DNA of 64,000 bases from an uncultured Anaerolineales bacterium (GTDB taxonomy: Bacteria > Chloroflexota > Anaerolineae > B4-G1), in NCBI GenBank assembly GCA_964649415.1, contig CAZYSK010000024.1:4711-68710 (forward strand), written 5' to 3'. Below are positions 13,587 to 60,957 of the stretch, in pieces (position 1 is the first letter of the stretch; the number at the start of each line of letters is the position of its first letter). The position numbers and the translations under genes were made by a program. A model generated the notes under the pieces. That model worked only from the letters and a program-made list of their open reading frames with translations, made no database searches and had not been told where the DNA came from.

Positions 13587-13620
13587 AGACCCTAAAGGTT
13601 TCAGAGAACCTTTAGGGTCT
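13587..13620. repeat. Palindromic element, family F (AGACCCTAAAGGTT-TCAGAG-AACCTTTAGGGTCT)
   Basis: Perfect 14-bp arms in the intergenic region upstream of ltaE. A second full copy lies inside a CDS at 43183-43216. Confidence 0.85.
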
Positions 13621-13698
13621 GTAAGAGTATGACCTCCCGCGTTTGACGCGGATTTCCTCGGGAAAACAGAGGAGAATGCAGGAACTTGTTCTCTTGCG

Positions 13699-13712
13699 AA
13701 CCTTTAGGGTCT
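13699..13712. repeat. Half copy of family F (AACCTTTAGGGTCT)
   Basis: Identical to the right arm at 13607-13620, 79 nt downstream of the full copy. Confidence 0.6.
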
Positions 13713-13730
13713 TGGGGGACCGCACGGCTG

Positions 13731-26715: not shown

Positions 26716-26790
26716 GTCGACCGAGTCTTTGAGACCAGCCATGGAGAACGGCTGGGAAGGAAACCGGGTTCTTGGCGACGCCATCTTGAT

Positions 26791-26824
26791 GGCGCGCCAT
26801 CGGAATGGCGCCTTTGTAGGAATG
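26791..26824. repeat. Hairpin+GTAG element related to families B2/C (GGCGCGCCAT-CGGA-ATGGCGCC-TTT-GTAGGAATG)
   Basis: Intergenic between mtd and the ATP-grasp gene. It is the reverse-complement counterpart of the 36-nt units at 45628-45735, with a few mismatches. A second small palindrome, GCCATC-TT-GATGGC, lies at 26780-26793. Confidence 0.6.
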
Positions 26825-26890
26825 CTGGGGCGCCGTCGCGGGAGCCTACGTCGTACGAGAGGCCCTGGTTTCTGAGGGTGGTGGAGCGGA

Positions 26891-28129
26891 GTGCGCACTG
26901 GCATTCTCATCGTCGGACTTAGCACACGCGCCATCGCCGAGTCGGCGGTGAGGGGGGGGCATCAGGTCGTCACACTGGACTACTTTGGCGATCGGGATCA
27001 GCGGGAGCTGGTGGAGAACCACGCGCTCCTGCGAGATCCTACACTGATTGGTGAGACCTGCCCCTCCTTCAGCGCCGCAGCACTGGAGCAAGCCAGCCGT
27101 TCTCTTGACTTCGAGTCAGTTGTGTACATCTCCAATCTGGAGAACCATCCCGAGGTGGTTGAAGAACTGGCACAGGGGCGCGTTCTGCTCGGGAACGCGC
27201 CCACTGTGCTCTATCAGGTGCGCGACTGGCGCACGCTGCGGGCCTTCTGCCATGAGGTTGGGGTTGCCTGTCCGCACACGTTGCTAGCTGGAGAGGGGGC
27301 GGCGGCTGACGGGGGCAACCGCTGGCTACGCAAGCCGGTCCGCAGCGGCGGAGGGCACGGCGTCCAGCCGTGGGATGGCAGGCCGTTAGGCCAGTCTCAC
27401 TTCCTGCAGGCGTATGTTGAAGGTCGGCCTGCGTCTGCGGCCTTCGTGGCCGATGGGAAGCGGTGCGTGGTGATCGGCCTGACGGAGCAACTCATTGGGC
27501 GGGGTGAGCTGGGGGCACAGGGCTTCGGCTGGTGTGGCAACATCCTTCCGTTGGCAGGGGGGGACAACGAATCGGGAAAGGAACGAAGGGGGGAAGGGGC
27601 GCAGCGGACTGCGCCTTGGAAGGACGAAGGGCTCGCCGTATTGGAGGAAGTGGAGCGGATGGCTGCTGCGCTCACTCGCCGCTTCGGTTTGCGGGGTGTG
27701 AACGGGCTGGATTTGATCGTGGCGCGCGACCGAGACGGTGGTCCACGCGCGATCCTGGTGGAGGTCAACCCCCGCTACACGGCCTCGATGGAATTGGTCG
27801 AGCGAGCATACGGGCTTAACATCTTCTCGCTGCACGTGGAAGCGATGGACGGTCGATTGCCTGACTTTCGGCTGGCGGAGCACTTGTACGCTCGGGGTCT
27901 GTGGTTTGCCAAAGGGATCGTCTACGCCAGGCGACCGGTGACTATGCCGGAGACAGGCGGGTGGGTGAAACGGGGCAGGCGGGACATTCCCTTCCCCGGC
28001 GAGCGGATCGAGGCTGGCCATCCCGTGTGTACGGTTCTAGCAGAAGGTGAGGGGCGAGATACGTGCTGGCAGCATTTGTTGGCGGGCGTCGCAGACGTCC
28101 GGCAGGAGATCGGAGACCTGACAGAGTGA
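26891..28129 (+). CDS. ATP-grasp domain protein of the C1-cofactor cluster (Orf17/OrfY- or MfnD-like)
   Basis: 412 aa from GTG 26891. ATP-grasp core: WLRKPVRSGGGHGV, FLQAYVEG, GVNGLDLIV, LVEVNPRYTASMEL. It carries the family B insert at 27559-27619. The exact substrate cannot be told from sequence. Confidence 0.7.
   Translation: MRTGILIVGLSTRAIAESAVRGGHQVVTLDYFGDRDQRELVENHALLRDPTLIGETCPSFSAAALEQASRSLDFESVVYISNLENHPEVVEELAQGRVLLGNAPTVLYQVRDWRTLRAFCHEVGVACPHTLLAGEGAAADGGNRWLRKPVRSGGGHGVQPWDGRPLGQSHFLQAYVEGRPASAAFVADGKRCVVIGLTEQLIGRGELGAQGFGWCGNILPLAGGDNESGKERRGEGAQRTAPWKDEGLAVLEEVERMAAALTRRFGLRGVNGLDLIVARDRDGGPRAILVEVNPRYTASMELVERAYGLNIFSLHVEAMDGRLPDFRLAEHLYARGLWFAKGIVYARRPVTMPETGGWVKRGRRDIPFPGERIEAGHPVCTVLAEGEGRDTCWQHLLAGVADVRQEIGDLTE
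27559..27619 (+). repeat. Composite repeat B (module B1 27559-27592 + hairpin module B2 27596-27619), in-frame in the ATP-grasp CDS
   Basis: GGGGGACAACGAATCGGGAAAGGAACGAAGGGGG is identical to 42664-42697. GGGGCGCAGCGGACTGCGCCTTGG is identical to the units at 44644-44742. It is translated as GDNESGKERRGEGAQRTAPW. Confidence 0.85.
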
Positions 28130-32061: not shown

Positions 32062-33380
32062 CCGGCAAGCTGGCGGCGGATGCGCTCACGGCGGCGCTGG
32101 AGCGGATGGCGCCCGATTTCGAGTACGAGGTGGCCGTGCTCGACTACTCGGTGGCGGCTCTGATGAGTACTGACTGGATCGCACGGCAACTGGTGGATGC
32201 CCGGCGGTGCGAGGAGATTATGATCTCCGGGTGGTGTCAGGGCGATCTATCCGTCATCGAGGAGCGGCTGGGGGTTCCGGTGACTCGCGGCCCCAAGGAT
32301 CTCAAGGACTTGCCCGCCCTATTCGGTCGCGAACGGGTGATGCCAGGCTACGGCCAGTACCGGGTGAAGATCCTGGCCGAGGTCGTGGACGCTCATCGGT
32401 TGCCCTGGGAGGACATTCTGACCCGGGCCGAGTACTACCACGCCAGCGGAGCCGACATCATTGACCTGGGGTGTCCGGTGCAGGGCGGTTTCCCCCACGT
32501 GGGCGAGGTCGTGAGGAAGCTGAAGGAGCGCGGCTTTCTCGTCAGTGTGGACACCTTTGATCACGAGACGATCCTGCACGCCGATGCGGCGGGCGTGGAC
32601 TTCCTGCTGAGTGTCAACTCGAAGAACATCGAACTGGCCCCGCGTCTTGGGTGCAAGGTGGTGGTTATCCCCGATTTCGACCAGGGGCTGCCTTCCCTGG
32701 AACGCAATATTGCCCGGCTGGAGGAATGGGGGGTTCCGTATATCGTTGACCCGGTGCTGAATCCCATCAGCTTCGGTTTCACGGAATCCATCCATCGGTT
32801 CTACGAGGTGAGGCAGCGATACCCGGATGCAGAGATGCTCATGGGGTTGGGGAACCTGACCGAGCTGACCGAGGCGGACAGCACCGGCATCAACGCCGTG
32901 ATGGCCGGGATGCTTTCGGAGTTGGAGATAGACTACGTCCTGACCACAGAGGTGATCAGTTGGGCCAGAGGAGCGGTGCGCGAACTGGATCTGGCGCGCA
33001 AGCTGATGTACTACTCTCGTCAGAACCAGGTTCTGCCCAAGCACGTGGACAGCAGCCTGGTGACGGTTAAGGACCCGCTGCACGGATACACGTACTATGG
33101 CGAAGCAGATCTACGGCTGATGCAATCCCAGGTGCGGGATCGGAACTTCCGTATCTTCACCGACGACGAGCAAATCACCGTGTTCAACAGTGAGATGTTT
33201 GTCGTGGGCACCGATCCGGATGAGGTTTTCGCCCGCCTTGGCGTGAGCGAGGGCTCACACGCCTTCTACCTGGGGCGGGAGTTGGAGCGGGCGGCTCTGG
33301 CTGTGAGGCTGGGCAAGAGATACACGCAGGAGGAGCCGCTGCGATGGGGGTACTTGAGCGATCGGATTCGGAAGGGCTGA
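32028..33380 (+). CDS. Dihydropteroate-synthase-like pterin-binding protein with N-terminal extension (Orf20/MJ0301-type H4MPT biosynthesis enzyme)
   Basis: 450 aa. RYLFVTGKLA N-domain, then a pterin-binding barrel (GADIIDLGC, VSVDTF, LLSVNS, IVDPVL, GLGNLTELTEADSTG). GGAGGG lies 6 nt before ATG 32028. Confidence 0.75.
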   Translation: MSVAGPRYLFVTGKLAADALTAALERMAPDFEYEVAVLDYSVAALMSTDWIARQLVDARRCEEIMISGWCQGDLSVIEERLGVPVTRGPKDLKDLPALFGRERVMPGYGQYRVKILAEVVDAHRLPWEDILTRAEYYHASGADIIDLGCPVQGGFPHVGEVVRKLKERGFLVSVDTFDHETILHADAAGVDFLLSVNSKNIELAPRLGCKVVVIPDFDQGLPSLERNIARLEEWGVPYIVDPVLNPISFGFTESIHRFYEVRQRYPDAEMLMGLGNLTELTEADSTGINAVMAGMLSELEIDYVLTTEVISWARGAVRELDLARKLMYYSRQNQVLPKHVDSSLVTVKDPLHGYTYYGEADLRLMQSQVRDRNFRIFTDDEQITVFNSEMFVVGTDPDEVFARLGVSEGSHAFYLGRELERAALAVRLGKRYTQEEPLRWGYLSDRIRKG

Positions 33381-33399
33381 TATTTGGAGGTAGTAGAGG

Positions 33400-34284
33400 A
33401 TGCACATCAACGGCGTTGAGATTGAGGACACCTTCGCCGAGGCGTTCAAGATGCGGGCTGCACGGTTGCTCATCACTGCGATTAACCCGCAGTGGGCGAT
33501 GACGGCGGCGCAAGTGAGCACGGGTTTCGCCACATCGGTCATCGCATGTGGCTGCGAGGCCGGCATCGAAGGGGTCGTCCCGTCGGACGTGACACCCGAT
33601 GGCCGCCCCGGCGTGAGTATTCTCATCTTCACAATGGGGCCAAAGGGGATGAAGGATCAGTTGATGCGCCGCGTGGGCCAGTGTATCATGACTTGTCCCA
33701 CGACGGCCTGCTTCAACGGCCTGGAGGGCGAGGAGTGGCTCAAGATCGGCGGGACGCTGCGCTACTTCGGCGATGGGTTCCAGGCGAGCAAGCTCGTGGG
33801 GGGGCGGAGGTTCTGGCGGATACCGGTGATGCAGGGCGAGTTCCTGGTGGAAGAGCAGTTCGGCATGAAGAAAGCCGTTGGCGGCGGGAACTTCCTTATC
33901 CTGGGCGAAAGCGTCGAGGCCACGCTTGGGGCGGCCGAACGGGCGGTGGAGGCGATGCACGCAGTGGAGGGGGTGGTGATGCCGTTCCCCGGTGGCATCG
34001 TACGCAGTGGCAGCAAGACGTCGTCACAGTACAAGTTCCTGCATGCCTCGACCAACACCGCGTACTGTCCTAGCCTCCGTCGCCAGACCGACAGCGCGCT
34101 GCCGGAGGGCGTCAATTCCGTGCTGGAGATCGTGATCGATGGGCTGGATGAGGATGCGGTGAGAGAGGCGACGCGGGTGGGCGTCGATGCGGCGTGCCGG
34201 CCCGGCATCGTGCGCATCTCGGCGGGCAACTACGGTGGCACTTTGGGGCAATACCAGATTCATCTGCAGGAGTTGTGGAAGTGA
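33400..34284 (+). CDS. ftr: Formylmethanofuran:tetrahydromethanopterin N-formyltransferase
   Basis: 294 aa. VEIEDTFAEAF.MRAARLLITA, GFATSVIACGCEAGIE, RIPVMQGEFLVEE, GGGNFLILG, MPFPGGIVRSGSK, ISAGNYGG.LG match Ftr/FhcD. Confidence 0.9.
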   Translation: MHINGVEIEDTFAEAFKMRAARLLITAINPQWAMTAAQVSTGFATSVIACGCEAGIEGVVPSDVTPDGRPGVSILIFTMGPKGMKDQLMRRVGQCIMTCPTTACFNGLEGEEWLKIGGTLRYFGDGFQASKLVGGRRFWRIPVMQGEFLVEEQFGMKKAVGGGNFLILGESVEATLGAAERAVEAMHAVEGVVMPFPGGIVRSGSKTSSQYKFLHASTNTAYCPSLRRQTDSALPEGVNSVLEIVIDGLDEDAVREATRVGVDAACRPGIVRISAGNYGGTLGQYQIHLQELWK

Positions 34285-35171
34285 GGAGCACTACACTGCG
34301 TTTGAGGGACTCGGTCACTCTCCCCGTCGAGGCGGAGAGTATATCGCCCGACCGGTTTGCCGGGCTCAGTCAGGAGGAGGTGGCGGCGCTACCACTCCTG
34401 TATGGGCGGCGACCGGTGACTGTCGGCGATCTGTTCGTGGTGGAAGGGGCGGACGTTGCGGACATTCAGGTGGGACGCACTTCAGAAAGTGCGTCCCACC
34501 TGGTTGGTCGTGCGTCCGATGGGGAGGAGATCCTCCTCGAAGGTGATCTCAGTCACGTGAAGCGGATCGGGCAGGGGATGGCCAGTGGACGGATCACCAT
34601 CCGAGGCAATGTCGGCATGCATCTTGGAGCCGAGATGAGCGGGGGGGAGATCGTCGTCCACGGGAACGCCGCGGCGTGGATGGGCGCGCACATGTCCGGT
34701 GGGGTCATCCGCGTGCGGGGGGACGTCGGCCCGATGGCCGGCGCTGCCTATCCGGGAGAGAAGCGCGGTATGCGCGGCGGTTCTATTCTCGTGGAAGGAA
34801 GCGCCGGGCCGCGGGTGGGGGAGCGCATGCGGCGCGGGCTGATCGCCGTCCAGGGCGACGTGGGAGAGTTCTCCGGGGTGCGGATGATCGCCGGATCGCT
34901 CTTCGTGTTTGGCACGTTGGGGCCGAGGGCGGGCGCTGGCATGAAGCGCGGCACGATCGTCGCGCTGGGATCTATTGAGGGCGACCTGCTGCCTGTGTTC
35001 CACTATGCCTGCTCCTATCAGCCGGCCTTCCTGCGCACTTATCTGCGCCACCTGCGCGGGTGGGGTTTGCCCGTCACGTCAGATCACGTCGAGGGAGTCT
35101 TTCGCCGCTACGTTGGTGACATCACGACTCTGGGAAAAGGGGAGATTCTGGTCTATGATCGGCGTCAATGA
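34281..35171 (+). CDS. fwdC: Formylmethanofuran dehydrogenase subunit C
   Basis: 296 aa from GTG 34281 (GTGA overlap with ftr). VTVGDLFVVEG, then the repeated G-x-x-x-G beta-helix motifs (GRITIRGNVGMHLGAEMSGGEIVVHGNAAAWMGAHMSGGVIRVRGDVG...). It carries the family A insert at 34449-34506. Confidence 0.85.
   Translation: MRSTTLRLRDSVTLPVEAESISPDRFAGLSQEEVAALPLLYGRRPVTVGDLFVVEGADVADIQVGRTSESASHLVGRASDGEEILLEGDLSHVKRIGQGMASGRITIRGNVGMHLGAEMSGGEIVVHGNAAAWMGAHMSGGVIRVRGDVGPMAGAAYPGEKRGMRGGSILVEGSAGPRVGERMRRGLIAVQGDVGEFSGVRMIAGSLFVFGTLGPRAGAGMKRGTIVALGSIEGDLLPVFHYACSYQPAFLRTYLRHLRGWGLPVTSDHVEGVFRRYVGDITTLGKGEILVYDRRQ
34449..34506 (+). repeat. Repeat family A copy 1 (58 nt, 16-bp hairpin), in-frame in fwdC
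   Basis: 58/58 identical to 39417-39474. The core is CAGGTGGGACGCACTT-CAGA-AAGTGCGTCCCACCTG (34467-34502). It is translated as ADVADIQVGRTSESASHLV. Confidence 0.9.
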
Positions 35172-36126
35172 ACGCGCAGTGGAGATCGTGCGGCGGATGA
35201 TCGCCGACGCGGAGGGATTGGGGTTGGCGGTGACGCGACTGCCGAACGGGACCACGGTGATCGATGCCGGTGTGCGGGTGCCCGGCTCGTTGGAGGCGGG
35301 ACGGCTGTTTGCTGAAGTATGCCTGGGGGGACTTGGCCAGGTTGGTTTCGCTGAGCTCGATTTCGACGACATGTGGCTGCCGGGAGTTTCCGTCTCGGTG
35401 AGCCACCCAGCGGTGGCGTGCATGGCGTCGCAGTATGCGGGGTGGTCGCTCGAGGCCAAGACCGAGAAGGGAAAGTACTTCGCGATGGGCTCCGGTCCAG
35501 CGCGGGCGCTTTACGCCGGGGAGCCGATCTTCGAGCGGCTGGTGATCCGGGACGAAGCCGATGTGGCAGTCCTGGCACTGGAGGGGCACGAGTTGCCGCC
35601 GGAGGTGGCAGCGGACAAGGTGGCCGAGAAGTGCGGGGTCTCTCCCGATGCGCTCTATCTTCTGGTTGCGCCTACCGCCAGCGTGGTGGGCTCGGTGCAG
35701 ATCGCTGCGCGTGTGGTGGAGACTGGGTTGCACAAGATGTTGGAGGTGTGCGACGGGGAAGACCTTGACATCGCTACGGTGGTGTCTGGCTTCGGCACCT
35801 GTCCCCTAGCGCCCGTCGCGGACGACGACCTGCGGGCCATCGGGCGCACCAACGACGCCGTGCTCTACGCTGGTCGGGCATGGTACACGATGAAGGCGGA
35901 CGACGCGCAGATCGAGGAGATGATTGACTGTTTACCCTCGTCGGCGTCACGGGACTACGGAACCTCCTTCTATGAGCTCTATCAGCGCTACAACGGTGAT
36001 TTCTACAAGATTGACCCGCTGCTCTTCAGTCCGGCCGAGGTGTTTATCAACAACCTGGGCAGTGGCCGCACGTTCCACGCCGGGCGCGTCAACGGCCGAA
36101 TGCTAAGGAAGGTGCTTCTGGAGTGA
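35155..36126 (+). CDS. mch: Methenyltetrahydromethanopterin cyclohydrolase
   Basis: 323 aa. Near-collinear with Methylobacterium/archaeal Mch: RMIADAE, LACMASQYAGW, FAMGSGPARA, GSVQIAARVVE, GRTNDA..YGG, SSASRDYG.F.E....YNGDFY.ID..LFSPAEV. Confidence 0.92.
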   Translation: MIGVNERAVEIVRRMIADAEGLGLAVTRLPNGTTVIDAGVRVPGSLEAGRLFAEVCLGGLGQVGFAELDFDDMWLPGVSVSVSHPAVACMASQYAGWSLEAKTEKGKYFAMGSGPARALYAGEPIFERLVIRDEADVAVLALEGHELPPEVAADKVAEKCGVSPDALYLLVAPTASVVGSVQIAARVVETGLHKMLEVCDGEDLDIATVVSGFGTCPLAPVADDDLRAIGRTNDAVLYAGRAWYTMKADDAQIEEMIDCLPSSASRDYGTSFYELYQRYNGDFYKIDPLLFSPAEVFINNLGSGRTFHAGRVNGRMLRKVLLE

Positions 36127-37043
36127 GAATCGGCATTCTTGGGCAGCGGGGGGGCTGGCACGTGCGTGCCCTGCAGCAGGCATTCGCTCGACGGGGCATC
36201 ACCGCCCCCTCGTTTTCTATTACGTGGCTGAAGGCGCGCCTGTCGGCGCGCCCATGGCTGACGGCCCCGGCCGATCAGGCCGACGCGGATGCGGGCATCC
36301 GCCTTCGGGATCTTGACGGAGCAGCACTGGAAAGCTACGACGTCTTGTTCGTGCGCGCGATCCCTGGGGGCTCCTTGGAGCAGATCATCTTCCGCGTGGA
36401 CGCGCTCCATCGCCTGGAAAACGCCGGCGTACGCATCGTCAACTCACCGGCGGCCATTGAGCGCACGGTGGACAAGTACTACACGTCGACGCTCCTGGAG
36501 GATGCGGGTCTGCCCACACCGCGCACAGTGGTCACCGAACGGTTCGCCGATGCGATGGCAGCGTTCCACGAGCTGGGGGGCGACGTTGTGGTCAAGCCCA
36601 TCTTTGGCTCGGAGGGACGGGGCATCGTGCGCGTCTTGGATCCGGACACGGCCTATCGGGTCTTCCGAGCGTTGGAACTGGGCCGCTACGTGTATTATCT
36701 TCAGGAGTTCGTGCCCCACGGCTGCCAGGACGTGCGTGTCTTTGTCGTCGGCCAGGAGGTGGTGGCCGCGATGACGCGCCGGGGAGAGACGTGGAAGACG
36801 AACGTGGCGCAGGGTGCTAAAGGCGAGCCGCTGGCGATCGACGACGAGCTGCGCGCGATGGCCCTCCAGGCAACCCGTGCATTGGGGGCCGATTACGCGG
36901 GCGTGGACATTCTCCCGCTTTCGGGCGGAGGCTATAGTGTGATCGAGGTCAACGGCATCCCCGGTTGGCGCGGTCTTCGGGCTGCGACCGGGGTGGATGC
37001 TGCTGACTGCCTGGTAGAATACGTTCTGGGAGAAGCGCGATGA
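36123..37043 (+). CDS. mptN: RimK-family ATP-grasp ligase, MptN-like (tetrahydromethanopterin:alpha-L-glutamate ligase by context)
   Basis: 306 aa. DKYYTSTLLEDAGLPTP, VVVKPIFGSEGRGI, YLQEFV, DVRVFVVG, GVDILP, VIEVNGIPGWRG. GTG 36123 overlaps the mch stop. Confidence 0.65.
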   Translation: MRIGILGQRGGWHVRALQQAFARRGITAPSFSITWLKARLSARPWLTAPADQADADAGIRLRDLDGAALESYDVLFVRAIPGGSLEQIIFRVDALHRLENAGVRIVNSPAAIERTVDKYYTSTLLEDAGLPTPRTVVTERFADAMAAFHELGGDVVVKPIFGSEGRGIVRVLDPDTAYRVFRALELGRYVYYLQEFVPHGCQDVRVFVVGQEVVAAMTRRGETWKTNVAQGAKGEPLAIDDELRAMALQATRALGADYAGVDILPLSGGGYSVIEVNGIPGWRGLRAATGVDAADCLVEYVLGEAR

Positions 37044-37927
37044 CACCTCTAGGACTGGACAAGATCGCATGGGCTGTCCACATTGCATGCCTGTTCGAGG
37101 TATGTGCCGACAAGCCGGGCAACGTGACCTGGGGCAAGGATTTCTGGGACACGCGCTTTGTCGACTTCCTGGCCAGTGCTATCGCCATTGGGCCTGCCCT
37201 GCGGGACGCGACTCACACCTCCGTTGGCCAGACCATCCTGCGGGCGGTGAACGACACCCACCAATTCGTGAGCACTAATACCAACCTGGGGATGGTCCTT
37301 CTGCTGGCTCCGTTGGCAAAGGCGGCCGGGCGGGGTCATCCCAATGGACTGCGGCTGGCTGTGAGCGAGGTATTGGAGGCGTTGACCGTGGAGGATGCCC
37401 GCTTGACGTTCGAGGCGATCCGCCTTGCCGCTCCGGGGGGCCTGGGCAGCGATGGTCGCTACGACGTGCACAGGGCAGACGTGGACGTGACGCTCAGAGA
37501 AGCTATGCGGGTGGCTCAGGATCGAGATACCGTGGCGCGGGAGTACGTGACGGACTTCGAAGTGACTTTCGAGCTTGGATACGCGACGCTCCGCCGCTTG
37601 TGGGCAGAGGGCCGCGGATTCTCAGAGTCCATTGTCCAGACTTCCCTCACTATCCTGTCGCAGATGCCGGATACGCTGATCGCGCGCAAGGAAGGAATGG
37701 ACGTTGCTTTGGACGTATCGCGGCGCGCCGGTGTCGTGTTACAGCACGGAGGGGCTTTCTCCGAGCAGGGCCGGGCGGCGTTGCGGGCATTCGATCTGTC
37801 GATCCGGGATGACAAACATCGTCTGAATCCGGGCACCACGGCGGACTTGATCGCAGCTTCGCTCTTCGTCTTCCTGACGGAGGGGGGCGCGTTCGAGGAC
37901 TTCCCGGAGTTGCTTGCACGTTGGTGA
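37040..37927 (+). CDS. Triphosphoribosyl-dephospho-CoA synthase (CitG/MdcB)-family protein ('Orf7' of C1 clusters)
   Basis: 295 aa. EVCADKPGNV, TNTNLGMVLLLAPL, DTLIARK, NPGTTADLIAASLF. ATGA overlap with mptN. Confidence 0.7.
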   Translation: MTPLGLDKIAWAVHIACLFEVCADKPGNVTWGKDFWDTRFVDFLASAIAIGPALRDATHTSVGQTILRAVNDTHQFVSTNTNLGMVLLLAPLAKAAGRGHPNGLRLAVSEVLEALTVEDARLTFEAIRLAAPGGLGSDGRYDVHRADVDVTLREAMRVAQDRDTVAREYVTDFEVTFELGYATLRRLWAEGRGFSESIVQTSLTILSQMPDTLIARKEGMDVALDVSRRAGVVLQHGGAFSEQGRAALRAFDLSIRDDKHRLNPGTTADLIAASLFVFLTEGGAFEDFPELLARW

Positions 37928-38003
37928 GGCAGTCGGCAAAGCAGCAAATCGGCAGAGGGGAGATTGTTTGACACGGTCGCGAGGTGCGGGAGGAACATCG
38001 GGT

Positions 38004-39095
38004 ATGGACCGCCGGCATCCTGCCGGCATGACTCGGGCGCACGATACGGGTCCGCAAGGCCCGCGCTTGCTGTGCGAAGGGTTCGCGGTGTTGACGGCAG
38101 ATGGCCTGATCTTCACGGTCAAGGGGTTGGTTCATCCCCCTGAGCGGGTGATCGCGTATCTGCGGTATCTCCCCGATCCAGAGGGCGGTCGGGAGCGCCT
38201 GGGCGTGCGCTACCGGCGCGTCTACCACTTCGAGGAGCAATTGGAAGTGCTCCAGAATCGCTTCCCGCACTATCTGTGGGACGATGAGGTGTTCGGGGTG
38301 CGTTTGCAGAGCGTGCCTCGGCGTTTTGTCCGGGAGGCATTCGATCCCTGCCTCTGCCTGGCTGATCTCCGTGACCGGGGTCCGGCCGACCTGGTCGAGG
38401 AACACGCCCTGGGTCTGTCGGAGCTGCTGAGAGACGTGGCCGGTGTGCCCGGCGAGGATCTGGGTGTCTCGGGGTCGGTGATGGTGGGCACGCACACAGA
38501 GAACTCGGACATTGACCTCCTCGTATATGGTGACGCGTCGGGGCGGGCCGTCCACCGAGCGCTTCAGCGTCTGTTGGATGAGCCGGGGAGGCCCGTGCGT
38601 CGCCTTGACGGGCAGGAGATGGCCGCACTGCACGCCGAGCATCGGCCGGACACCCCACTGTCTTTCGAGGATTTCTCCCGGCTTCAGAATCGCAAGGTCA
38701 ACGAGGGGCGCTATCGGGGGCGGGAGTATTTCATCCGCTTCGTGAAGCGACCATCGGAGGTGAGTGAGCGGTATGGGGATCGCCGCTTTGAGGCACTGGG
38801 GCAGGCCACGATTCGGGCGGAGGTGACGGACGCCCGTGATGCGATTTTCACGCCCTGTCGCTACACCGTCGCAAACGCGACGGTTCTGGATGGCCCGCCC
38901 GCGCCCGACTTGCGCGAGGTGGTCTCCTTTCGGGGGCGCTTCAGCGACCAGGTGCGCGTAGGTGAGTGGGCCATCGCCCGGGGGAGCCTGGAGCGGGTTG
39001 TGGTCGAAGGCGAGCGGGTGTATCATCACCTGGTCGTCGGTGGACAGGCGGGCGACTACGTGCGCCCTGAGCGCGTGACGTCCCCCGTTCAGTAG
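38004..39095 (+). CDS. Pol-beta-superfamily nucleotidyltransferase-like protein with C-terminal OB-like domain (paralog 1)
   Basis: 363 aa from ATG 38004 (GGAGG 10 nt upstream; ORF-track TTG 37914 is an alternative). NTase signature LGVSGSVMVGTHTENSDIDLLVYG. Clearly paralogous to 42119-43303 over its full length. Confidence 0.6.
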   Translation: MDRRHPAGMTRAHDTGPQGPRLLCEGFAVLTADGLIFTVKGLVHPPERVIAYLRYLPDPEGGRERLGVRYRRVYHFEEQLEVLQNRFPHYLWDDEVFGVRLQSVPRRFVREAFDPCLCLADLRDRGPADLVEEHALGLSELLRDVAGVPGEDLGVSGSVMVGTHTENSDIDLLVYGDASGRAVHRALQRLLDEPGRPVRRLDGQEMAALHAEHRPDTPLSFEDFSRLQNRKVNEGRYRGREYFIRFVKRPSEVSERYGDRRFEALGQATIRAEVTDARDAIFTPCRYTVANATVLDGPPAPDLREVVSFRGRFSDQVRVGEWAIARGSLERVVVEGERVYHHLVVGGQAGDYVRPERVTSPVQ

Positions 39096-39128
39096 GGGCG
39101 CGGTTTCCGCGCCCGCCGGAGTGCCAGA

Positions 39129-40070
39129 GTGCCGGAGTTGATGGCTTTGGAGTCTGAAGACAGGGAGTTGGATACGAAACGGGCTGCGCTGAGGGAAACG
39201 TTCGCCGATATGGAGCGCGTGCTGGTCGCCTACTCTGGCGGCGTGGACAGCGCGTTTCTGCTGTGGGCTGCCTTGGACGCGCTGGGCCCGGAGCGTGTGC
39301 TGGCCGTGACCGCTTCCTCGCCCATATTCGCCCGCCGGGAGTTGAGGGCAGCCGAGGACTTGGCGCATCGCTTGGGGGCTCCCCATCGTTTCGTGCGCAC
39401 CATGCAACTGGAGGATGCGGACGTTGCGGACATTCAGGTGGGACGCACTTCAGAAAGTGCGTCCCACCTGGTTGATGGTGCGCCCGTGAAATTCGCGACG
39501 AATCCGCCGGAGCGATGCTATCTTTGCAAGCGGGAGATATTCGCCCGGCTGGTGGAGGTGGCCCGCGAGGAGGAAATACCCTGGGTCGTCGAGGGCTCCA
39601 ACCTGGACGACCGTGACGAGTACCGGCCAGGCACCCGGGCAGTGCGTGAGTTGGACGTGCGAAGCCCGTTGGAGGAGGTCGGACTGACCAAGGCGGACAT
39701 CCGGGCTCTCTCCCGGCGCGTGGGCTTGCCGACGTGGAATCAGCCAGCGCAGACCTGTTTGGCCACGCGCTTCCCGCACGGCACGCCGATCACGCGTGAG
39801 CGGCTGGAGCGGGTGGAGGCCGCTGAGGTGGTGTTGAGGGAGATGGGATTCGGCGAGCTGCGGGTGCGGGATCACGTCGACCCTGCGGCGGGTCCTATCG
39901 CCCGCATCGAGGTGCTCCGTGAGGATGTGGCACGGCTGGCGCGACCGGAAGCCGCGGAACGGGTGGTGGCCGCGCTGCGGGGGCTGGGCTACGACTACGT
40001 CACGTTGGACCTGGGGGGCTACCGGCGCGGTGGCCTCAGTGGGCAGGTTGGTGAAGTAGTAGATTGGTAG
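39129..40070 (+). CDS. larE: LarE, ATP-dependent sulfur transferase of nickel-pincer (NPN) cofactor biosynthesis (PP-loop ATP pyrophosphatase)
   Basis: 313 aa. PP-loop VAYSGGVDSAFL, DDRDEYRPG, CLATRFPHG, RVRDH, YVTLDLGGYRRG. There are three Cys: CYLC 39516-39527 and TGT 39756-39758. It carries the family A insert at 39417-39474. Confidence 0.85.
   Translation: MPELMALESEDRELDTKRAALRETFADMERVLVAYSGGVDSAFLLWAALDALGPERVLAVTASSPIFARRELRAAEDLAHRLGAPHRFVRTMQLEDADVADIQVGRTSESASHLVDGAPVKFATNPPERCYLCKREIFARLVEVAREEEIPWVVEGSNLDDRDEYRPGTRAVRELDVRSPLEEVGLTKADIRALSRRVGLPTWNQPAQTCLATRFPHGTPITRERLERVEAAEVVLREMGFGELRVRDHVDPAAGPIARIEVLREDVARLARPEAAERVVAALRGLGYDYVTLDLGGYRRGGLSGQVGEVVDW
39417..39474 (+). repeat. 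Repeat family A copy 2, in-frame in larE
   Basis: Identical to 34449-34506 and in the same reading frame (ADVADIQVGRTSESASHLV). The hairpin is at 39435-39470. Confidence 0.9.
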
Positions 40071-40131
40071 ATTGGTACATTGGTACATTGGTAGATTGGT
40101 AGATTGGTACATTGGTACATTGGTCAATCGG
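40060..40131. repeat. Octanucleotide tandem array [(TAGATTGG)2(TACATTGG)2]x2 + TCAATCGG
   Basis: Nine 8-nt units from 40060 to 40131. The second unit contains the larE stop codon TAG (40068-40070). The array fills the larE-larB spacer. Confidence 0.9.
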
Positions 40132-40143
40132 AGTGTGATATAG

Positions 40144-40887
40144 ATGGAAGTGAAGTGGTTGCGTGAGTTGTTGGAGAACGTACGAGAGGGCGAGACGGAC
40201 ATAGAGGATGCGTTGGCCCGGTTGCGGGGATTCCCCTACGAGGATCTGGGATTCGCCCGGCTGGACAGCCATCGCACCTTGCGCAAGGGTTTCCCCGAGG
40301 TGATATTCTGCCCGGGCAAGACTACCGGGCAGATCGTGCAGATCGTAGAGCGAATCCGGGCGCGGGAGGGGCGGGTGATGGCGGCGCGCGCCGAGCCAGC
40401 GGTGGCAGATGCGGTACAGCAGGCTTTTCCCGACGCGGTCTATCATCCTGCCGCGCGGATGATCGTCGTCGGTGAGCCGGCCCCCCAGCAGGGACGGGGG
40501 ACGGTGCTTGTGGTCAGCGCGGGCACCGCAGACATCCCGGTGGCCGACGAGGCCGTCGTGACGGCTGGGACGATGGGCAGCCCCGTGGAACGGCTGTACG
40601 ACGTCGGCGTGGCGGGCATTCACCGGCTGCTGGGCAACCGTGACCGCCTGTTCGCCGCCAATGTGCTGGTGGTTGTGGCCGGGATGGAGGGAGCGCTGGC
40701 CAGTGTCGTGGCCGGCCTGGTGGACCGGCCTGTTGTGGCTGTCCCCACCAGTGTCGGCTACGGGGCCAGTTTCGGCGGGTTGTCTGCGCTGCTGACGATG
40801 TTGAATAGCTGCTCACCCGGCGTGTGCACGGTCAACATCGACAATGGGTTTGGGGCGGGATACCTGGCTCACTTGATCAATCAGTGA
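40144..40887 (+). CDS. larB: LarB, NPN cofactor biosynthesis carboxylase/hydrolase (PurE-like)
   Basis: 247 aa. N-terminal LD.HR..R.GFPEVIFCPGKT, then a PurE-like core VLVVSAGTADIPVADEA, VVVAGMEGALASVVAG, VVAVPTSVGYG. Confidence 0.85.
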   Translation: MEVKWLRELLENVREGETDIEDALARLRGFPYEDLGFARLDSHRTLRKGFPEVIFCPGKTTGQIVQIVERIRAREGRVMAARAEPAVADAVQQAFPDAVYHPAARMIVVGEPAPQQGRGTVLVVSAGTADIPVADEAVVTAGTMGSPVERLYDVGVAGIHRLLGNRDRLFAANVLVVVAGMEGALASVVAGLVDRPVVAVPTSVGYGASFGGLSALLTMLNSCSPGVCTVNIDNGFGAGYLAHLINQ

Positions 40888-40915
40888 AAGGATTACTCTC
40901 AACGAGGGGTGACAG

Positions 40916-42115
40916 ATGAGGATTGCATATTTCGATTGCTTCTCGGGTATCAGTGGGAACATGGTTCTGGGGGCGCTGGTGGACGCCGGCCTGGACGTCG
41001 AGCGGTTAAGGGCCGAGTTAGCCCGTCTGCCGGTGTCCGGCTACGAACTGGTCGCCGAGCCGGTGCAGAAACGCGGTCTGCGCGGCACGCACGTCAGCGT
41101 TGAGGTGTCGGAGCACGGGGTGGAGCGTCACCTACATGACATTGAGGAGATCATCGGGGGGAGCGATCTGCCCGATGAGGTCAAGCGCACCGGTCTGGCG
41201 ATATTCCGACGATTGGCGGAGGCGGAGGCGGGGGTGCACGGCATGCCGCTGGATCACGTGCACTTCCACGAAGTGGGAGCGGTGGACGCCATCGTGGACG
41301 TGGTGGGGGCAGCAATTGGACTGTGGCTGATGGGCATAGAGCAGGTCTACGCATCGCCGGTGCACGTGGGATGTGGGACGGTGACGTGTGCCCACGGTAC
41401 ACTGCCGGTGCCTGCCCCGGCGACGCAGGAGCTGCTGCGTGGGGTGCCGATCTATGGGCGGGATGTGGAATCGGAACTGGTGACCCCAACGGGAGCGGCC
41501 ATCCTCACGACGCTGGCCGAGGCGTTTGGGAGCGCGCCCCCGATGCGTGTGGAACAGATGGGCTACGGCGCTGGGACCCGCGATCTGCCGCTGCCTAATC
41601 TGCTGCGCGTCTCGATCGGTGAGGTCGAGGCGGCGTTGGAGGAGATGGAGGGGTACGAGGCGGACGTCATCACCGTCATCGAGACCAACATCGACGACAT
41701 GAACCCACAGTTCTACGAGCACGTGATGGCCAAGTTGTTCGATGCGGGGGCGGTTGACGTGTTCCTGACGCCCATCCAGATGAAGGCGGGACGGCCGGGC
41801 GTGCAGTTGAGTGTGCTCGTGGCCCAGGCGCACGTTGCGGCTGCCACGGAGACCCTGTTCGCTGAGACGAGTACCATCGGGGTGCGGATGGCCTCAATGC
41901 GGCGGTGGAAACTGGGGCGCGAGCGCGTGGTGGTGGAGACGCGCTATGGGCCGATTGGCACGAAGGTGGCCCGGCGTGGGGAGGAAGTGGTGAACGCGGC
42001 TCCGGAGTATCGAGAATGCCGCCGCGTCGCCGAGGAGCTTGGCGTGCCGCTGAAGGACGTGTATCAGGCGGCTACGGAGGCTGTCCGCGCCTATGTCCAG
42101 CAGGAGACGGGTTAA
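40916..42115 (+). CDS. larC: LarC, nickel-inserting cyclometallase of NPN biosynthesis (DUF111)
   Basis: 399 aa in a single frame. MRIAYFDCFSGISGNMVLGALVDAG, HFHEVGAVDAIVDVVG, ETNIDDMNPQ, PIQMKAGRPG. Confidence 0.88.
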   Translation: MRIAYFDCFSGISGNMVLGALVDAGLDVERLRAELARLPVSGYELVAEPVQKRGLRGTHVSVEVSEHGVERHLHDIEEIIGGSDLPDEVKRTGLAIFRRLAEAEAGVHGMPLDHVHFHEVGAVDAIVDVVGAAIGLWLMGIEQVYASPVHVGCGTVTCAHGTLPVPAPATQELLRGVPIYGRDVESELVTPTGAAILTTLAEAFGSAPPMRVEQMGYGAGTRDLPLPNLLRVSIGEVEAALEEMEGYEADVITVIETNIDDMNPQFYEHVMAKLFDAGAVDVFLTPIQMKAGRPGVQLSVLVAQAHVAAATETLFAETSTIGVRMASMRRWKLGRERVVVETRYGPIGTKVARRGEEVVNAAPEYRECRRVAEELGVPLKDVYQAATEAVRAYVQQETG

Positions 42116-42118
42116 GCC

Positions 42119-43303
42119 GTGACAGATATGCAGGAGAGGCGCAAGCCCAAGGACCGGGACTTCCTCCGTACCCGCGAGGGCATGTTCTTCTGTGTGACCG
42201 GTTATCTGCACCCGCCGGATCGGTATACCGCCTATCTCAAGTATTCGCCTGCTGCGTCGGGGAAGTGGCACAATGCGGAGACGGCCTACCAGCGGGAACT
42301 GCCTTACTACCACGTCCGCAGTGTGGAGGATACAATCCAGCATCTGGAGGCGCATTACCCCTGGTACGTCGCGGATTGCCCCGTCCGGAATATCCGCTTC
42401 TCAATGGTGCCCCGGGAATACGTCGCCCGCTACTACGATCCACAGGAGCGGTTGAGGGAGATACTGGCGCATCCTGGCGACTCGCTGGAGGAGGAGGTGT
42501 GTGGTCTGGCGACCGAGATCGCCGAGACCGCCGGCGTGCCCGTCGGCGATCTGGGTATCACGGGATCGATCCTGATCGGATTGCACAACCCGACCTTCTC
42601 GGATATTGATCTGGTGGTGTATGGGCGGCAGAGCGCCCGTCGGGTGCGCCGGGCCTTGGGCGCGGGGGACAACGAATCGGGAAAGGAACGAAGGGGGAGA
42701 GCAGCGCAGTCCGCTGCGCCGCGAATCCGCGAGTTGGGCGCGGCGTTCATCGAGCGCTGGAGCCGGGGAATCGCGGAGCGCTTTCCCTTGACGGTGAGTG
42801 AGGCGCAGTATCTCGCCCGCCGGCGTTGGAACTACGGCTGGTACGGGGAGCGGTATTTCTCGATCCACCCGATCCGCACGGATGACGAGATCACCGAGCA
42901 CTACGGAGATCACATCTACCGCGGCCAGGGAGCCGCACGAATCCGGGCCACCGTTGTCGGCACGAGCGACGCGCTGTTCATGCCCGCCGGGTACCTGCTG
43001 GCGGACGTGGAGGTCTTGGAAGGCCTTGCAGAGGCGGCGGATGTCCGGGAACTGGTCTCCTACGAGGGTCTCTATCGCGACGTGGCCGACGTGGGGCAGA
43101 GAATCGAGGCCAAGGGGAACGTGGAGCGAGTGGACGCGGACATTGCGGACATTGATAGCGCGTCCGTCCGTGCGTCCGCGGCAGACCCTAAAGGTTTCGG
43201 AAAACCTTTAGGGTCTGACATCAGGCTGGTGGTCGGCACGAGCGCCCTCAAGGGTGAGGGGTACATACGGCCGCTTCCCGCCGGGGATAGCGCGGACAAC
43301 TGA
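42119..43303 (+). CDS. Pol-beta-superfamily nucleotidyltransferase-like protein (paralog 2)
   Basis: 394 aa. LGITGSILIGLHNPTFSDIDLVVYG. Collinear with paralog 1 except for two extra segments, which coincide with the repeat elements at 42664-42720 and 43136-43216. Its stop overlaps the next ATG (TGATG). Confidence 0.6.
   Translation: MTDMQERRKPKDRDFLRTREGMFFCVTGYLHPPDRYTAYLKYSPAASGKWHNAETAYQRELPYYHVRSVEDTIQHLEAHYPWYVADCPVRNIRFSMVPREYVARYYDPQERLREILAHPGDSLEEEVCGLATEIAETAGVPVGDLGITGSILIGLHNPTFSDIDLVVYGRQSARRVRRALGAGDNESGKERRGRAAQSAAPRIRELGAAFIERWSRGIAERFPLTVSEAQYLARRRWNYGWYGERYFSIHPIRTDDEITEHYGDHIYRGQGAARIRATVVGTSDALFMPAGYLLADVEVLEGLAEAADVRELVSYEGLYRDVADVGQRIEAKGNVERVDADIADIDSASVRASAADPKGFGKPLGSDIRLVVGTSALKGEGYIRPLPAGDSADN
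42664..42720 (+). repeat. Composite repeat B copy 2 (B1 42664-42697 + B2 hairpin with flipped loop 42704-42719), in-frame
   Basis: B1 is 34/34 identical to 27559-27592. The hairpin is GCGCAG-TCCG-CTGCGC, against GCGCAG-CGGA-CTGCGC in copy 1. It is translated as GDNESGKERRGRAAQSAAP. Confidence 0.85.
43136..43216 (+). repeat. Double hairpin element in-frame in paralog 2: GCGGAC-repeat hairpin (43136-43179) + family F palindrome (43183-43216)
   Basis: GCGGACATTGCGGACATT...GCGTCCGTCCGTGCGTCCGC, then AGACCCTAAAGGTTT-CGGA-AAACCTTTAGGGTCT. It is translated as DADIADIDSASVRASAADPKGFGKPLGSD. Confidence 0.8.
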
Positions 43304-44670
43304 TGGCGGAAGCGGTCTTCCTGATATACGTCGCCACGGTCATGGTGATGGGCGTCAAGGCCAAAGCTAAGACGCTGGAGACGTTCATCCTGGGCGACGT
43401 GCTGGACACGAAGACGATGGTGGCCACAATCGTGTCCACGTTCTACGGCGCGTCTGCCATCCTTGGCGGGGTGAGCCTGACGTACCAGTTGGGGCTGGAC
43501 GTAATCTGGTTCATGGTGCCCTTCTATCTGGGCAACGTGGCCATCATCCTCTTGCTCAAGCGGATCGCTTCCTCAGAAAGGTGCACGCTGCCAGGCTTCC
43601 TGGGCGACTTCTACGGCAATGGGTTCGCTGTGGCAAGTTCGATGCTGTTGGTGACTCTGTGCCTCGTTCCGGAGGAGATCATCGCCGGGGGAAAGATCCT
43701 ATCCCTGTTCACGTCAATGCCCGTGGAGGCGGCGATGGGCGCTATGACCTTCGTGTTGGTGGTGCCTGTTGCCATCGGCGGGATGAAAGCAGACGTGATA
43801 ACGGATATCGCTCAGTTCGCCCTGATGTTGATCATGCTTGGCGTCATGGTGCTGTTCCTCGGCCATACGGGCCGCCTGGGCCTGCAGCCGGACCTGGACT
43901 CGGGTGTCCCGCCCGGGCATCTGACTCTCTGCTCGTCTCTATCGCTGCAGGAAATCGCCGTGTTCTTCGTCTCCTTCTTCTTCCTGCCGATCACCTCAGC
44001 ACCTCTGTACCTGCGCTTCTTTGCCTCGGAGTCAGAAGCGTGCTCCAGGAAATCGGTGCTGTCGTCTGTCGCGATATGGATGGTCGTAGACGCGATCATC
44101 GTGCTCTGCGGCTTCGCGGCCCTGCGGATGTTTCCGAACCTGGACGATCCAGATATGTCGTTCGTCCTGCTTGGGATGGCGATGCCCCCGGTGGGTCGGG
44201 GCGTGTTCACTATAGGGCTGCTGGCCGCGATCATGAGCACGGTGAACTCCTTTCTCCAGTCCGGGGCGTCAAGCCTGGCGCACGACGCATTCAGGCATTT
44301 CATGCCTGGAACCAGTGACCGGCGATTGCTCGCGCTGTCCAGGGTGTTCGTGATTGTGCTGGGCTTGCTGAGCCTGGCGCTGGCTCTGTGGTTCCAGATG
44401 ATCGTGCCGGCGCTGTTGTTCACGTTGAGTATGTGGACGGCCGGGGTGCTGGTTCCCACTCTGGCGGCTCTCAGCGGCGTGCGGTTGAGGAAGCGGTCGG
44501 CGTGGGCCAGTCTGGCGGCCGGGACACTATCCTGTCTGGCCTGGCAGATGGCGCAGCCGTTTCAGGTAGATGCGTTGTTCGTCGGCCTGGGATGCTCTGT
44601 GCTCGCCGCGCTTATCTCGGAAGTCCTGCCCGGTCGCGCTCAGGGGGCGCAGCGGACTGCGCCTTGGTAG
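43303..44670 (+). CDS. Sodium:solute symporter (SSS) family transporter
   Basis: 455 aa with about 12 TM segments. GGMKADVITDIAQF-type motif. The last 8 codons and the stop (GAQRTAPW*) are encoded by repeat unit 1 at 44644. Confidence 0.75.
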   Translation: MAEAVFLIYVATVMVMGVKAKAKTLETFILGDVLDTKTMVATIVSTFYGASAILGGVSLTYQLGLDVIWFMVPFYLGNVAIILLLKRIASSERCTLPGFLGDFYGNGFAVASSMLLVTLCLVPEEIIAGGKILSLFTSMPVEAAMGAMTFVLVVPVAIGGMKADVITDIAQFALMLIMLGVMVLFLGHTGRLGLQPDLDSGVPPGHLTLCSSLSLQEIAVFFVSFFFLPITSAPLYLRFFASESEACSRKSVLSSVAIWMVVDAIIVLCGFAALRMFPNLDDPDMSFVLLGMAMPPVGRGVFTIGLLAAIMSTVNSFLQSGASSLAHDAFRHFMPGTSDRRLLALSRVFVIVLGLLSLALALWFQMIVPALLFTLSMWTAGVLVPTLAALSGVRLRKRSAWASLAAGTLSCLAWQMAQPFQVDALFVGLGCSVLAALISEVLPGRAQGAQRTAPW

Positions 44671-44742
44671 AGGAGCGGGGCGCAGCGGACTGCGCCTTGG
44701 TAGAGGAGCGGGGCGCAGCGGACTGCGCCTTGGTAGAGGAGC
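44644..44742 (+). repeat. Three perfect tandem 33-nt units of hairpin module B2 (GGGGCGCAGCGGACTGCGCCTTGGTAGAGGAGC)
   Basis: Units at 44644-44676, 44677-44709 and 44710-44742, then a degenerate start of a fourth unit. Each has the GGCGCAG-CGGA-CTGCGCC hairpin followed by TTGGTAG. Confidence 0.9.
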
Positions 44743-44798
44743 GGGGTGAAGCGGTGAATCCGCGAGGAGAAAGGGTCGGGCCACGACTGGGCCTCAAT

Positions 44799-45611: not shown

Positions 45612-45627
45612 TGATATAGCGAGCCAT

Positions 45628-45735
45628 CATCCCTACAAAGGCGCCGTTCTGACGGCGCACTAACATCCCTACAAAGGCGCCGTTCTGACGGCGCGCTAAC
45701 ATCCCTACAAAGGCGCCGTTCTGACGGCGCGCTAA
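45628..45735. repeat. Three tandem 36-nt units, family C (CATCCCTACAAAGGCGCCGTTCTGACGGCGCRCTAA)
   Basis: Units at 45628-45663, 45664-45699 and 45700-45735, between convergent genes. Hairpin GCGCCGT-TCTG-ACGGCGC with CTAC 3 nt upstream. The last unit supplies the stop codon (45732-45734) of the minus-strand lipoprotein gene. Confidence 0.9.
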
Positions 45736-46608: not shown

Positions 46609-46734
46609 GGGGGCGGCGCGTATGGAAACGCGCCCTACGTTGGCCGATGGTTCGGCGGGGGCGGCGTGTATGGAAACGCGCCCTACGTTGGCTGATGGTT
46701 CGGCGGGGGCGGCGCGTATGGAAACGCGCCCTAC
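46609..46734. repeat. Tandem 48-nt units x2.6, family D (GGGGGCGGCGCGTATGGAAACGCGCCCTACGTTGGCYGATGGTTCGGC)
   Basis: Units at 46609-46656 and 46657-46704, plus a partial unit at 46705-46734. Hairpin GGCGCGT-ATGGAA-ACGCGCC is followed directly by CTAC. The array fills the spacer between the FtsX permease stop and the lipoprotein start. Confidence 0.9.
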
Positions 46735-46749
46735 AGGGATTGGGGATCG

Positions 46750-50105: not shown

Positions 50106-50224
50106 ACTGGAAACGTCAAACGTTGAGAGTTGTCATTGGCAAACCGGGCCGACTACCGCGGATGGAGAAATACACGATAGTACACTGGAAACGTCAAACG
50201 TTGAGAGTTGTCATTGGCAAACCG
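50106..50224. repeat. Two identical 41-nt direct repeats, family E (ACTGGAAACGTCAAACGTTGAGAGTTGTCATTGGCAAACCG), 78 nt apart
   Basis: Copies at 50106-50146 and 50184-50224, immediately upstream of the ABC ATPase gene. Each contains the small palindrome AACGT-CAA-ACGTT. Confidence 0.85.
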
Positions 50225-60925: not shown

Positions 60926-60957
60926 CAGGTTGGGAGCCCGCGTGGGCTCCCAACCTG
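60926..60957 (+). other. 14-bp perfect hairpin after the binding-protein gene
   Basis: CAGGTTGGGAGCCC-GCGT-GGGCTCCCAACCTG with no T-tract. It is positioned like the mRNA-stabilising hairpins that follow SBP genes in sugar ABC operons. Confidence 0.5.

Follow-up and report, generated by a model that had tools for sequence, protein, structure and literature searches.

An in-frame hairpin repeat in fwdC and larE of an uncultured Anaerolineales bacterium, probably a REP-type element of the RAYT transposase family

How does one and the same hairpin sequence come to lie, in frame, in two unrelated genes? The question is raised by a stretch of 64 kb from an uncultured Anaerolineales bacterium (GenBank assembly GCA_964649415.1, contig CAZYSK010000024.1), here called the window, in which an fwdC-like and a larE-like gene carry the same palindromic repeat. 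An initial annotation, made from the letters of this DNA alone, had taken the repeat for a mobile palindrome resembling the Rickettsia palindromic elements (RPEs). The analysis described here points to a repetitive extragenic palindromic (REP) element of the RAYT/TnpA-REP (HUH-Y1) transposase family, found mainly in the Chloroflexota class Anaerolineae, and the probability of this reading is put at roughly 0.8.

One hairpin element in two genes

Direct comparison within the window confirms that nucleotides 34449-34506 and 39417-39474 are identical at 58/58 positions, and a repeat finder gives a longer match of 78 nt (34441-34518 and 39409-39486) with 92% identity. At the centre of each copy stands a 36-nt palindrome, CAGGTGGGACGCACTT-CAGA-AAGTGCGTCCCACCTG (34467-34502 and 39435-39470), with a perfect stem of 16 bp and a CAGA loop, which occurs twice in the window as opposed to 0.00 times expected from 100 dinucleotide-preserving shuffles. 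Both copies lie on the plus strand in frame 0 of their host open reading frame (ORF), where they read ADVADIQVGRTSESASHLV. The identity, the palindrome with its loop and the in-frame position inside fwdC had all been described in the initial annotation and stand as described, the larE copy being placed likewise. The suspicion of a nested hairpin of about 70 nt is also borne out, as the 5' GCGGACG pairs with the right-hand module in a fold with an energy of -29.5 kcal/mol (z = -7.6) for DNA and -43.9 kcal/mol (z = -5.6) for RNA. The unit size requires revision: 58 nt are indeed identical, and the actual unit is 69 nt (23 codons), a composite of the 36-nt core and flanking modules. A scan of window positions 33000-41000 against Rfam at E ≤ 1 gave zero matches.

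The identities first proposed for the two host genes hold at the level of curated protein families. The ORF at 34281-35171 matches TIGR03122 (formylmethanofuran dehydrogenase subunit C) with 264 bits against a cutoff of 131; its product is identical to a called protein of 296 aa (P0001), and the gene sits in an operon of fwd, ftr and mch genes of the tetrahydromethanopterin (H4MPT) pathway. The ORF at 39129-40070 matches TIGR00268 (LarE) with 294 bits against a cutoff of 150, the match being split in two around the insert, and has larB-like (AIRC) and larC-like (Ni_insertion) genes as neighbours.

Orthologues of both proteins lack the insert, as had been anticipated for FwdC. The closest FwdC homologues are at most 72% identical to the window protein and about 20 residues shorter, and the segment, placed between VVEG and DGxEEI, is found in 0/24 aligned homologues and is also missing from 5t5i_C, a solved FwdC structure. 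Two of the homologous loci (L132 and L133) have the same operon order as the window and are therefore regarded as orthologous. Their DNA at this site reads GAA GGG | GAT GGG GCG GAG, whereas the window gene has 69 extra nucleotides (GCG GAC GTT ... CGT GCG TCC) and lacks one GCG codon of the orthologues. In LarE, all 19 aligned homologues show a gap of 23 residues (69 nt), located 8 residues ahead of the conserved NPPxRCYxCK cysteine motif.

The AlphaFold check that had been suggested places both inserts in low-confidence loops of otherwise confident models. FwdC was modelled with a mean predicted local distance difference test (pLDDT) score of 87 and values below 50 essentially only at residues 59-79, between two strands and at a domain boundary. 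The LarE model has a mean pLDDT of 90 and low values at about residues 97-120, between a strand and a helix, and at the C-terminal residues 304-313. Both folds are thus predicted to survive, with the inserts falling between secondary-structure elements. Low pLDDT is expected in columns without homologues, so the models do not by themselves demonstrate that the loops are disordered. We infer that the insert-bearing FwdC and LarE stay functional.

The hairpin family and an associated transposase gene

The census of copies that the initial annotation had called for was carried out by scanning metagenome contigs and the GTDB species-representative genomes for exact matches to the two stem arms, GTGGGACGCAC and GTGCGTCCCAC, set 4-12 nt apart. 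The core (C)AGGTGGGACGCACTT-CRGA-AAGTGCGTCCCACCT(G) is present in 82 contigs from metagenomes and 48 from genomes, in many unrelated contexts including other coding sequences. About 37 of the 48 genome contigs belong to metagenome-assembled genomes (MAGs) of Chloroflexota, namely Anaerolineae, Anaerolineales, Ardenticatenaceae, Thermoflexia and Candidatus Leptofilum; the remaining matches, mostly actinobacterial (e.g. Streptomyces), have the look of unrelated hairpins. Among 44 oriented copies, the conserved stretch ends exactly at (C)AG...CT(G) and the flanks beyond 36 nt are unrelated, which defines the family unit as a 36-nt hairpin with a C-R-G-A loop, here called REP1.

In several contigs two hairpins lie 620-720 nt apart with a conserved ORF of about 190 aa between them, and a tblastn search finds this ORF beside the hairpin in 12 loci, two of which are identical (L035, L071, L092 = L031, L008, L023, L114, L100, L106, L093, L043 and L091). 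In at least nine distinct loci the distance between a hairpin and one or both ORF ends is about 20-110 nt, most clearly in L035 and L071, where hairpins are about 20 nt away from both. The encoded protein scores 32-37 bits with Pfam Y1_Tnp, above the cutoff of 23, and aligns over the full profile length with NCBIfam REP_Tyr_transpos (E = 2.5e-19), with HYH and YIH motifs that are invariant among the ORFs. When a profile of these ORFs was compared with solved structures, the best match was E. coli TnpA-REP (4er8_A, E = 3.7e-5) in the YIxxNPVKxG..DWPxS region; a single sequence gave no match among solved structures, so that 4er8 was reached by the profile alone. There are at least 4,000 relatives of the ORF, some labelled by JGI as "REP element-mobilizing transposase RayT" and some placed by NCBI in MAGs of Chloroflexi or Anaerolineae. 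REP-RAYT systems are characterised and defined by an arrangement of this kind, with REPs on the flanks of their RAYT gene (PMC5581495).

The hairpins that flank the RAYT genes are variable in their stems, with GGA replaced by GGG, GGT, CGA or CAA and the opposite arm changing to match. Across the variants 94.6% of cells are paired and 14/16 pairs are changed on both sides; as the variants were chosen for being hairpins, this count illustrates co-variation and is no test of it.

As a side observation on the surroundings of the RAYT genes, all 6 loci with enough flanking sequence lie within restriction-modification clusters, 5 of them beside type I genes. In three of the loci the RAYT gene separates hsdM from hsdS; in one it follows hsdS, in one it precedes hsdR, and in one its neighbours are hsdR and a gene for an Mrr-like endonuclease. 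The REP that follows the RAYT gene in L071 is in frame with the N-terminus of hsdS, directly after a TAG stop, and a GTG inside the REP may be usable as the hsdS start codon.

Tolerance of the hairpin in coding sequence is not confined to the window. REP1 lies in frame in Pfam-confirmed ORFs for HsdS (at an orthologous site in two MAGs), HsdR, and FGE-sulfatase, TIR and AAA/TPR proteins, and probably also in a GNAT protein, at a site shared by contigs L010 and L060. Outside the window, the Pfam-confirmed set amounts to 9 copy-bearing ORFs at 7 distinct sites. As an upper bound for the in-gene share, 27 of 63 copies lie in a frame that is open for at least 50 codons on both sides; of 20 long hairpin-spanning ORFs that were scanned, 11 are without a Pfam match and may be spurious (e.g. 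those on the plus strand of L010 and the minus strand of L060), so the share of copies within genes is only bracketed. Most of the verified in-gene copies read VGRT..SASHL, the other two frames carrying Trp, Cys and Pro. Since the stem is palindromic, a change of orientation alters the loop codons only, and a TCTG loop introduces a stop codon into the VGRT..SASHL frame. Random insertion followed by selection would produce just such a pattern. The window element likewise encodes the same peptide in unrelated proteins whose ORFs remain intact, as RPE insertions do.

The 69-nt composite has the form GCGGACGTT + GCGGACATT + REP1 (36 nt) + GTT + G(G/A)T(C/G)GTGCG(T/C)CC, and its sub-parts are all multiples of three (9, 21 and 39 nt). 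The motif GCGGACRTT occurs 9 times in the window, where 1.35 occurrences are expected, and its left tandem form was seen at 34449, 39417 and 43136 and otherwise only in L010 and L060. Six other contigs have the right extension after REP1 (L010, L037, L060 and L072, with partial forms in L012 and L059), and the left extension stands beside REP1 in L010 and, partially, in L072. The outer modules also occur without REP1, as in a tandem of the 21-nt unit U (GCGGACRTTGAYCGTGCGTCC) in L060, and at 43136-43180 modules of the fwdC/larE type, including GCGTCC/GTGCGTCC modules, precede a different hairpin, REP2, instead of REP1. The window element is therefore a nested REP, with REP1 enclosed by the loop of another small palindrome (GCGGACRTT ... 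GRTSGTGCGYCC). No inverted REP1 doublets of the REPIN type were seen, the window copies consisting of one hairpin nested in another, different module.

Contigs L010 and L060 (at position 12517) have near-identical DNA on the right-hand side of the hairpin, which fits an orthologous position within the GNAT-like gene. REP1 and the right module are present in both; the left GCGGACGTT/GCGGACATT module is present in L010 alone. The composite either grows in place or gets partly overwritten.

The recognition and cleavage of hairpins on single-stranded DNA by TnpA-REP and IS200/IS605 transposases is established knowledge. By analogy with the biochemistry of these enzymes, the Anaerolineae hairpin would extrude wherever DNA becomes single-stranded, for example at the replication fork, and the RAYT would recognise, cut and rejoin the extruded hairpin, as E. 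coli TnpA-REP and IS200/IS605 enzymes do. Insertions would then occur at many places, and the survivors would be those that add whole codons without a stop in a tolerant surface loop. As the two window copies agree at every junction, the 69-nt composite was copied into fwdC and larE as a unit. The transposase responsible for these two copies was presumably a RAYT in the source genome.

Weighing the explanations

Several observations weigh against a RAYT-mobilised REP. The RAYT gene is absent from the 64-kb window, and the score of the transposase ORF with REP_Tyr_transpos, 69.6 bits, falls below the curated cutoff of 80. Exact-core copies are few, with 2 in the window (both intragenic) and 1-4 per MAG. 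The unpaired GTAG or CGTC tag of classified REPs is not a consensus in the 44 oriented copies: position -3 is occupied by C in 27 of them, by T in 7 and by A and G in 5 each, and is followed by AG, which pairs with CT. GTAG stands ahead of a minority of copies, e.g. the upstream copy in L035, and a GTAG-tagged REP was rejected on this count. At the junctions (GAAGGG|...|GATGGG in fwdC and GAGGAT|...|GTGAAA in larE) there is neither a target-site duplication nor a convincing target motif; the TGGA-G common to the left side of both copies may be chance. The net gain in fwdC is 66 nt rather than 69, and the 58 identical nucleotides are followed by 3 differences in the next 11, which fit a single transposition no better than gene conversion or selection acting on the residues encoded. 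Finally, no close relative was found to have an empty-site allele, and the nearest orthologue without the insert is only 72% identical, so that recency and mobility are inferred, not seen.

Some of these observations are shared with the alternative that survives best, in which no transposase took part and the composite spread among fwdC, larE and the third gene (that of the 43136 composite) through template switching or short-patch gene conversion between existing hairpins, so that the RAYT would be irrelevant to these copies. The break in identity after 58 nt resembles the end of a conversion tract, all three composites are on one strand inside 9 kb, the GCGGA at the 5' end of the element matches GGGGCGGAG at the fwdC site of the orthologues, and L010 and L060 differ on the left side at one orthologous site. 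Conversion requires a copy that pre-exists at each site, however, which leaves the primary insertion into three unrelated genes unexplained, and the flanks of the copies have no shared homology that could support recombination. The alternative is considered unlikely.

It is still less probable that the hairpin is kept because its RNA or DNA serves the host, for instance by pausing translation between domains, as an RNase or mRNA-stability signal or by binding a protein, rather than being a tolerated selfish insertion. The conservation of the stem over many Anaerolineae MAGs could be taken in this sense, but is explained by recognition by the co-inherited RAYT. The use of one reading frame by 4/4 composite copies, the great stability of the RNA hairpin at -43.9 kcal/mol and the position of the FwdC insert at a domain boundary would also suit such a role, yet the hairpin is found in unrelated genes and outside Pfam-confirmed genes with no common context, the orthologues manage without it and Rfam offers no match.

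A miniature inverted-repeat transposable element (MITE), i.e. an element derived by deletion from a DDE-type insertion sequence and moved by way of terminal inverted repeats, would similarly be small, palindromic, repeated and non-coding on its own. It was rejected, since both target-site duplication and terminal inverted repeats are missing: no duplication is present at either junction, and the conserved part is a single hairpin and not two ends around a variable core. Moreover, the only gene that consistently adjoins the hairpin encodes a Y1 transposase, which leaves a MITE hardly credible.

Just as little weight attaches to an ancestral protein segment, for which the short unrelated extra residues of the FwdC homologues P0010 and P0028 at the insert site (where loop length thus varies) might speak, or to an assembly artefact: the former was rejected on the nucleotide identity across two unrelated genes and the absence of the segment from all orthologues examined, and the latter because the same insert-bearing FwdC protein is on record on 3 contigs and the 125-kb JGI metagenome contig that contains the window (Ga0309772_1000138, JGI 3300029258) is listed for 2 samples.

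Further repeats in the window and comparison with known systems

REP1 is not the only hairpin repeat of the window (Table 1). REP2 has the same architecture, and the L132 orthologue of the ORF that holds the third composite (60% identical) lacks 25 residues exactly at the composite. A partial REP2 arm at 13699-13714 follows the REP2 copy at 13587-13621 at a distance of about 80 nt.

A further repeat, D7, of about 65 nt is found at 27551-27620 and 42656-42720 (83% identical) and consists of GGGGACAACGAATCGGGAAAGGAACGAAGGGGG followed by a GGCGCAG-CGGA-CTGCGCC hairpin whose loop is flipped between the two copies. It is in frame both in an ATP-grasp ORF (26891-28129) and in ORF 42119-43303, reading GDNESGKERRG in each. 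The L132 orthologue of the latter lacks 15 residues at the D7 site; the ATP-grasp ORF has no relative among solved structures, so its insert is unconfirmed by alignment.

Tandem GC-rich hairpin arrays stand at 44644-44754, 45619-45735 and 46609-46752, with periods of 33, 36 and 48 nt and three copies each. Their loops are CGGA or TCTG, like REP1; one inverted copy lies at 26787-26837, and the first 33-nt array unit forms the last ~9 codons of an SSF transporter ORF (43303-44670). An 8-nt tandem repeat (TTGGTAGA/TTGGTACA) of about 11-12 copies fills 40040-40135 in the larE-larB spacer and starts in the last codons of larE. A perfect 14-bp hairpin at 60926-60957, CAGGTTGGGAGCCC-GCGT-GGGCTCCCAACCTG, likewise has a CAGGT...ACCTG base, and a perfect direct repeat of 41 nt, spaced 78 nt, is located at 50106-50224.

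Table 1. Positions of the composites, their modules and their host genes in the window, with related features outside it
Feature	Position	Strand	Remark
fwdC/fhcC-like gene, host of copy 1	34281..35171	+	TIGR03122 and Pfam GXGXG
69-nt composite, copy 1 (fwdC)	34449..34517	+	encodes ADVADIQVGRTSESASHLVGRAS
Left module GCGGACGTT GCGGACATT	34449..34466	+	9-nt tandem; left half of 21-nt unit U
REP1 core hairpin	34467..34502	+	16-bp perfect stem, CAGA loop
Right module GTT GGTCGTGCGTCC(G)	34503..34518	+	outer stem with 5' GCGGACG (fold)
larE-like gene (ATP-dependent sulfur transferase LarE family), host of copy 2	39129..40070	+	TIGR00268
69-nt composite, copy 2 (larE)	39417..39485	+	encodes ADVADIQVGRTSESASHLVDGAP; core hairpin 39435-39470
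Third composite, ORF 42119-43303 (NTP_transf_2 family)	43136..43217	+	GCGGACATT twice, then GATAGCGCGTCC..GTGCGTCC, then REP2
REP2 hairpin CAGACCCTAAAGGTTT-CGGA-AAACCTTTAGGGTCTG	43182..43217	+	16-bp stem, architecture same as REP1
REP2 copy AGACCCTAAAGGTT-TCAGAG-AACCTTTAGGGTCT	13587..13621	+	outside every listed ORF of at least 70 aa
Predicted tryptic peptides from the inserts			FwdC TSESASHLVGR; LarE TSESASHLVDGAPVK
RAYT loci in restriction-modification clusters	L114:102-4406, L100:1594-6097, L092, L106:2854-5752, L091:4450-7998, L008:197-2497		

REP-RAYT systems have, to our knowledge, been studied almost only in Proteobacteria, and the present family extends them to Anaerolineae, where it is apparently undescribed, as no paper describing such systems there was found. 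Hosting by Chloroflexota, a perfect 16-bp stem without GTAG, nested composites and the position of the RAYT gene in restriction-modification clusters were not found in the literature searched and appear new. A bolder view would hold that the Anaerolineae possess a distinct REP-RAYT system (no GTAG, 16-bp stems, nesting), with a RAYT gene that resides in type I restriction-modification operons (hsdM-RAYT-hsdS), perhaps functionally coupled to them, and with repeats that regularly make new surface loops in core metabolic enzymes, there being at least 5 in-frame insertions from three repeat families in 64 kb. This is unlikely; if true, it would provide a free-living counterpart of the RPE phenomenon in Rickettsia. 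In either case the locus offers a natural example of hairpin repeats absorbed by enzymes of H4MPT-dependent C1 metabolism and of nickel-pincer cofactor synthesis with the predicted fold unbroken, and for annotators it explains odd inserts of 20-25 residues and split hidden Markov model matches in proteins of Chloroflexota MAGs.

The closest parallels are the REP/REPIN-RAYT systems of Proteobacteria, such as E. coli TnpA-REP with its REPs and bacterial interspersed mosaic elements (BIMEs) or the REPINs of Pseudomonas. In both cases copies of a short hairpin repeat are dispersed in the genome, the same hairpin borders a gene for a Y1 HUH transposase with a C-terminal YIxxNPVKxG..DWPxS region, and the stem co-varies between lineages while the hairpin is kept. 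With its 36 nt and its stable fold, the core also resembles the repeats of REPtrons, which are palindromes of about 20-40 nt. Classified REPs carry a conserved unpaired GTAG or CGTC tetranucleotide at one end (PMC3733652), whereas the Anaerolineae repeat has no GTAG consensus and its stem is unusually long (16 bp) and perfect. Further differences from the proteobacterial systems are that copies occur mostly as singlets or nested composites rather than as inverted doublets, that exact copies are apparently few, that the host belongs to the Chloroflexota and that the RAYT loci examined lie inside type I restriction-modification clusters.

With the IS200/IS605 family and its non-autonomous derivatives, the palindrome-associated transposable elements (PATEs), the repeat would share Y1 HUH chemistry on DNA hairpins and the lack of a target-site duplication. 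Unlike in these elements, a single near-symmetric hairpin stands in copies beside the transposase gene in place of distinct left and right ends, and tnpB was not noted beside the RAYT gene in the loci examined.

The comparison with RPEs drawn at the outset can be kept in part. Insertion, unrelated contexts and tolerance within genes are as originally read, and the proper comparison is with REPs that have a RAYT: because the hairpin flanks RAYT genes in related contigs, "RPE-like" describes a functional analogy and not membership of a family. RPE and CGTC-type repeats have no associated transposase (PMC3733652). The present repeat differs from RPEs in this respect and in its unrelated host, a comparison drawn at the level of the systems. 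Intragenic REPs (Di Nocera et al. 2013, PMC3733652) and RPEs are likewise in-frame palindromes in known, apparently functional proteins, to which they add some 20-30 residues with the same peptide appearing in unrelated proteins. REPs inside ORFs are documented in several phyla, with RPEs as the classic case (PMC3733652), and the insertions into fwdC and larE thus introduce no new principle: they are of a kind already known, here met with in a new host lineage.

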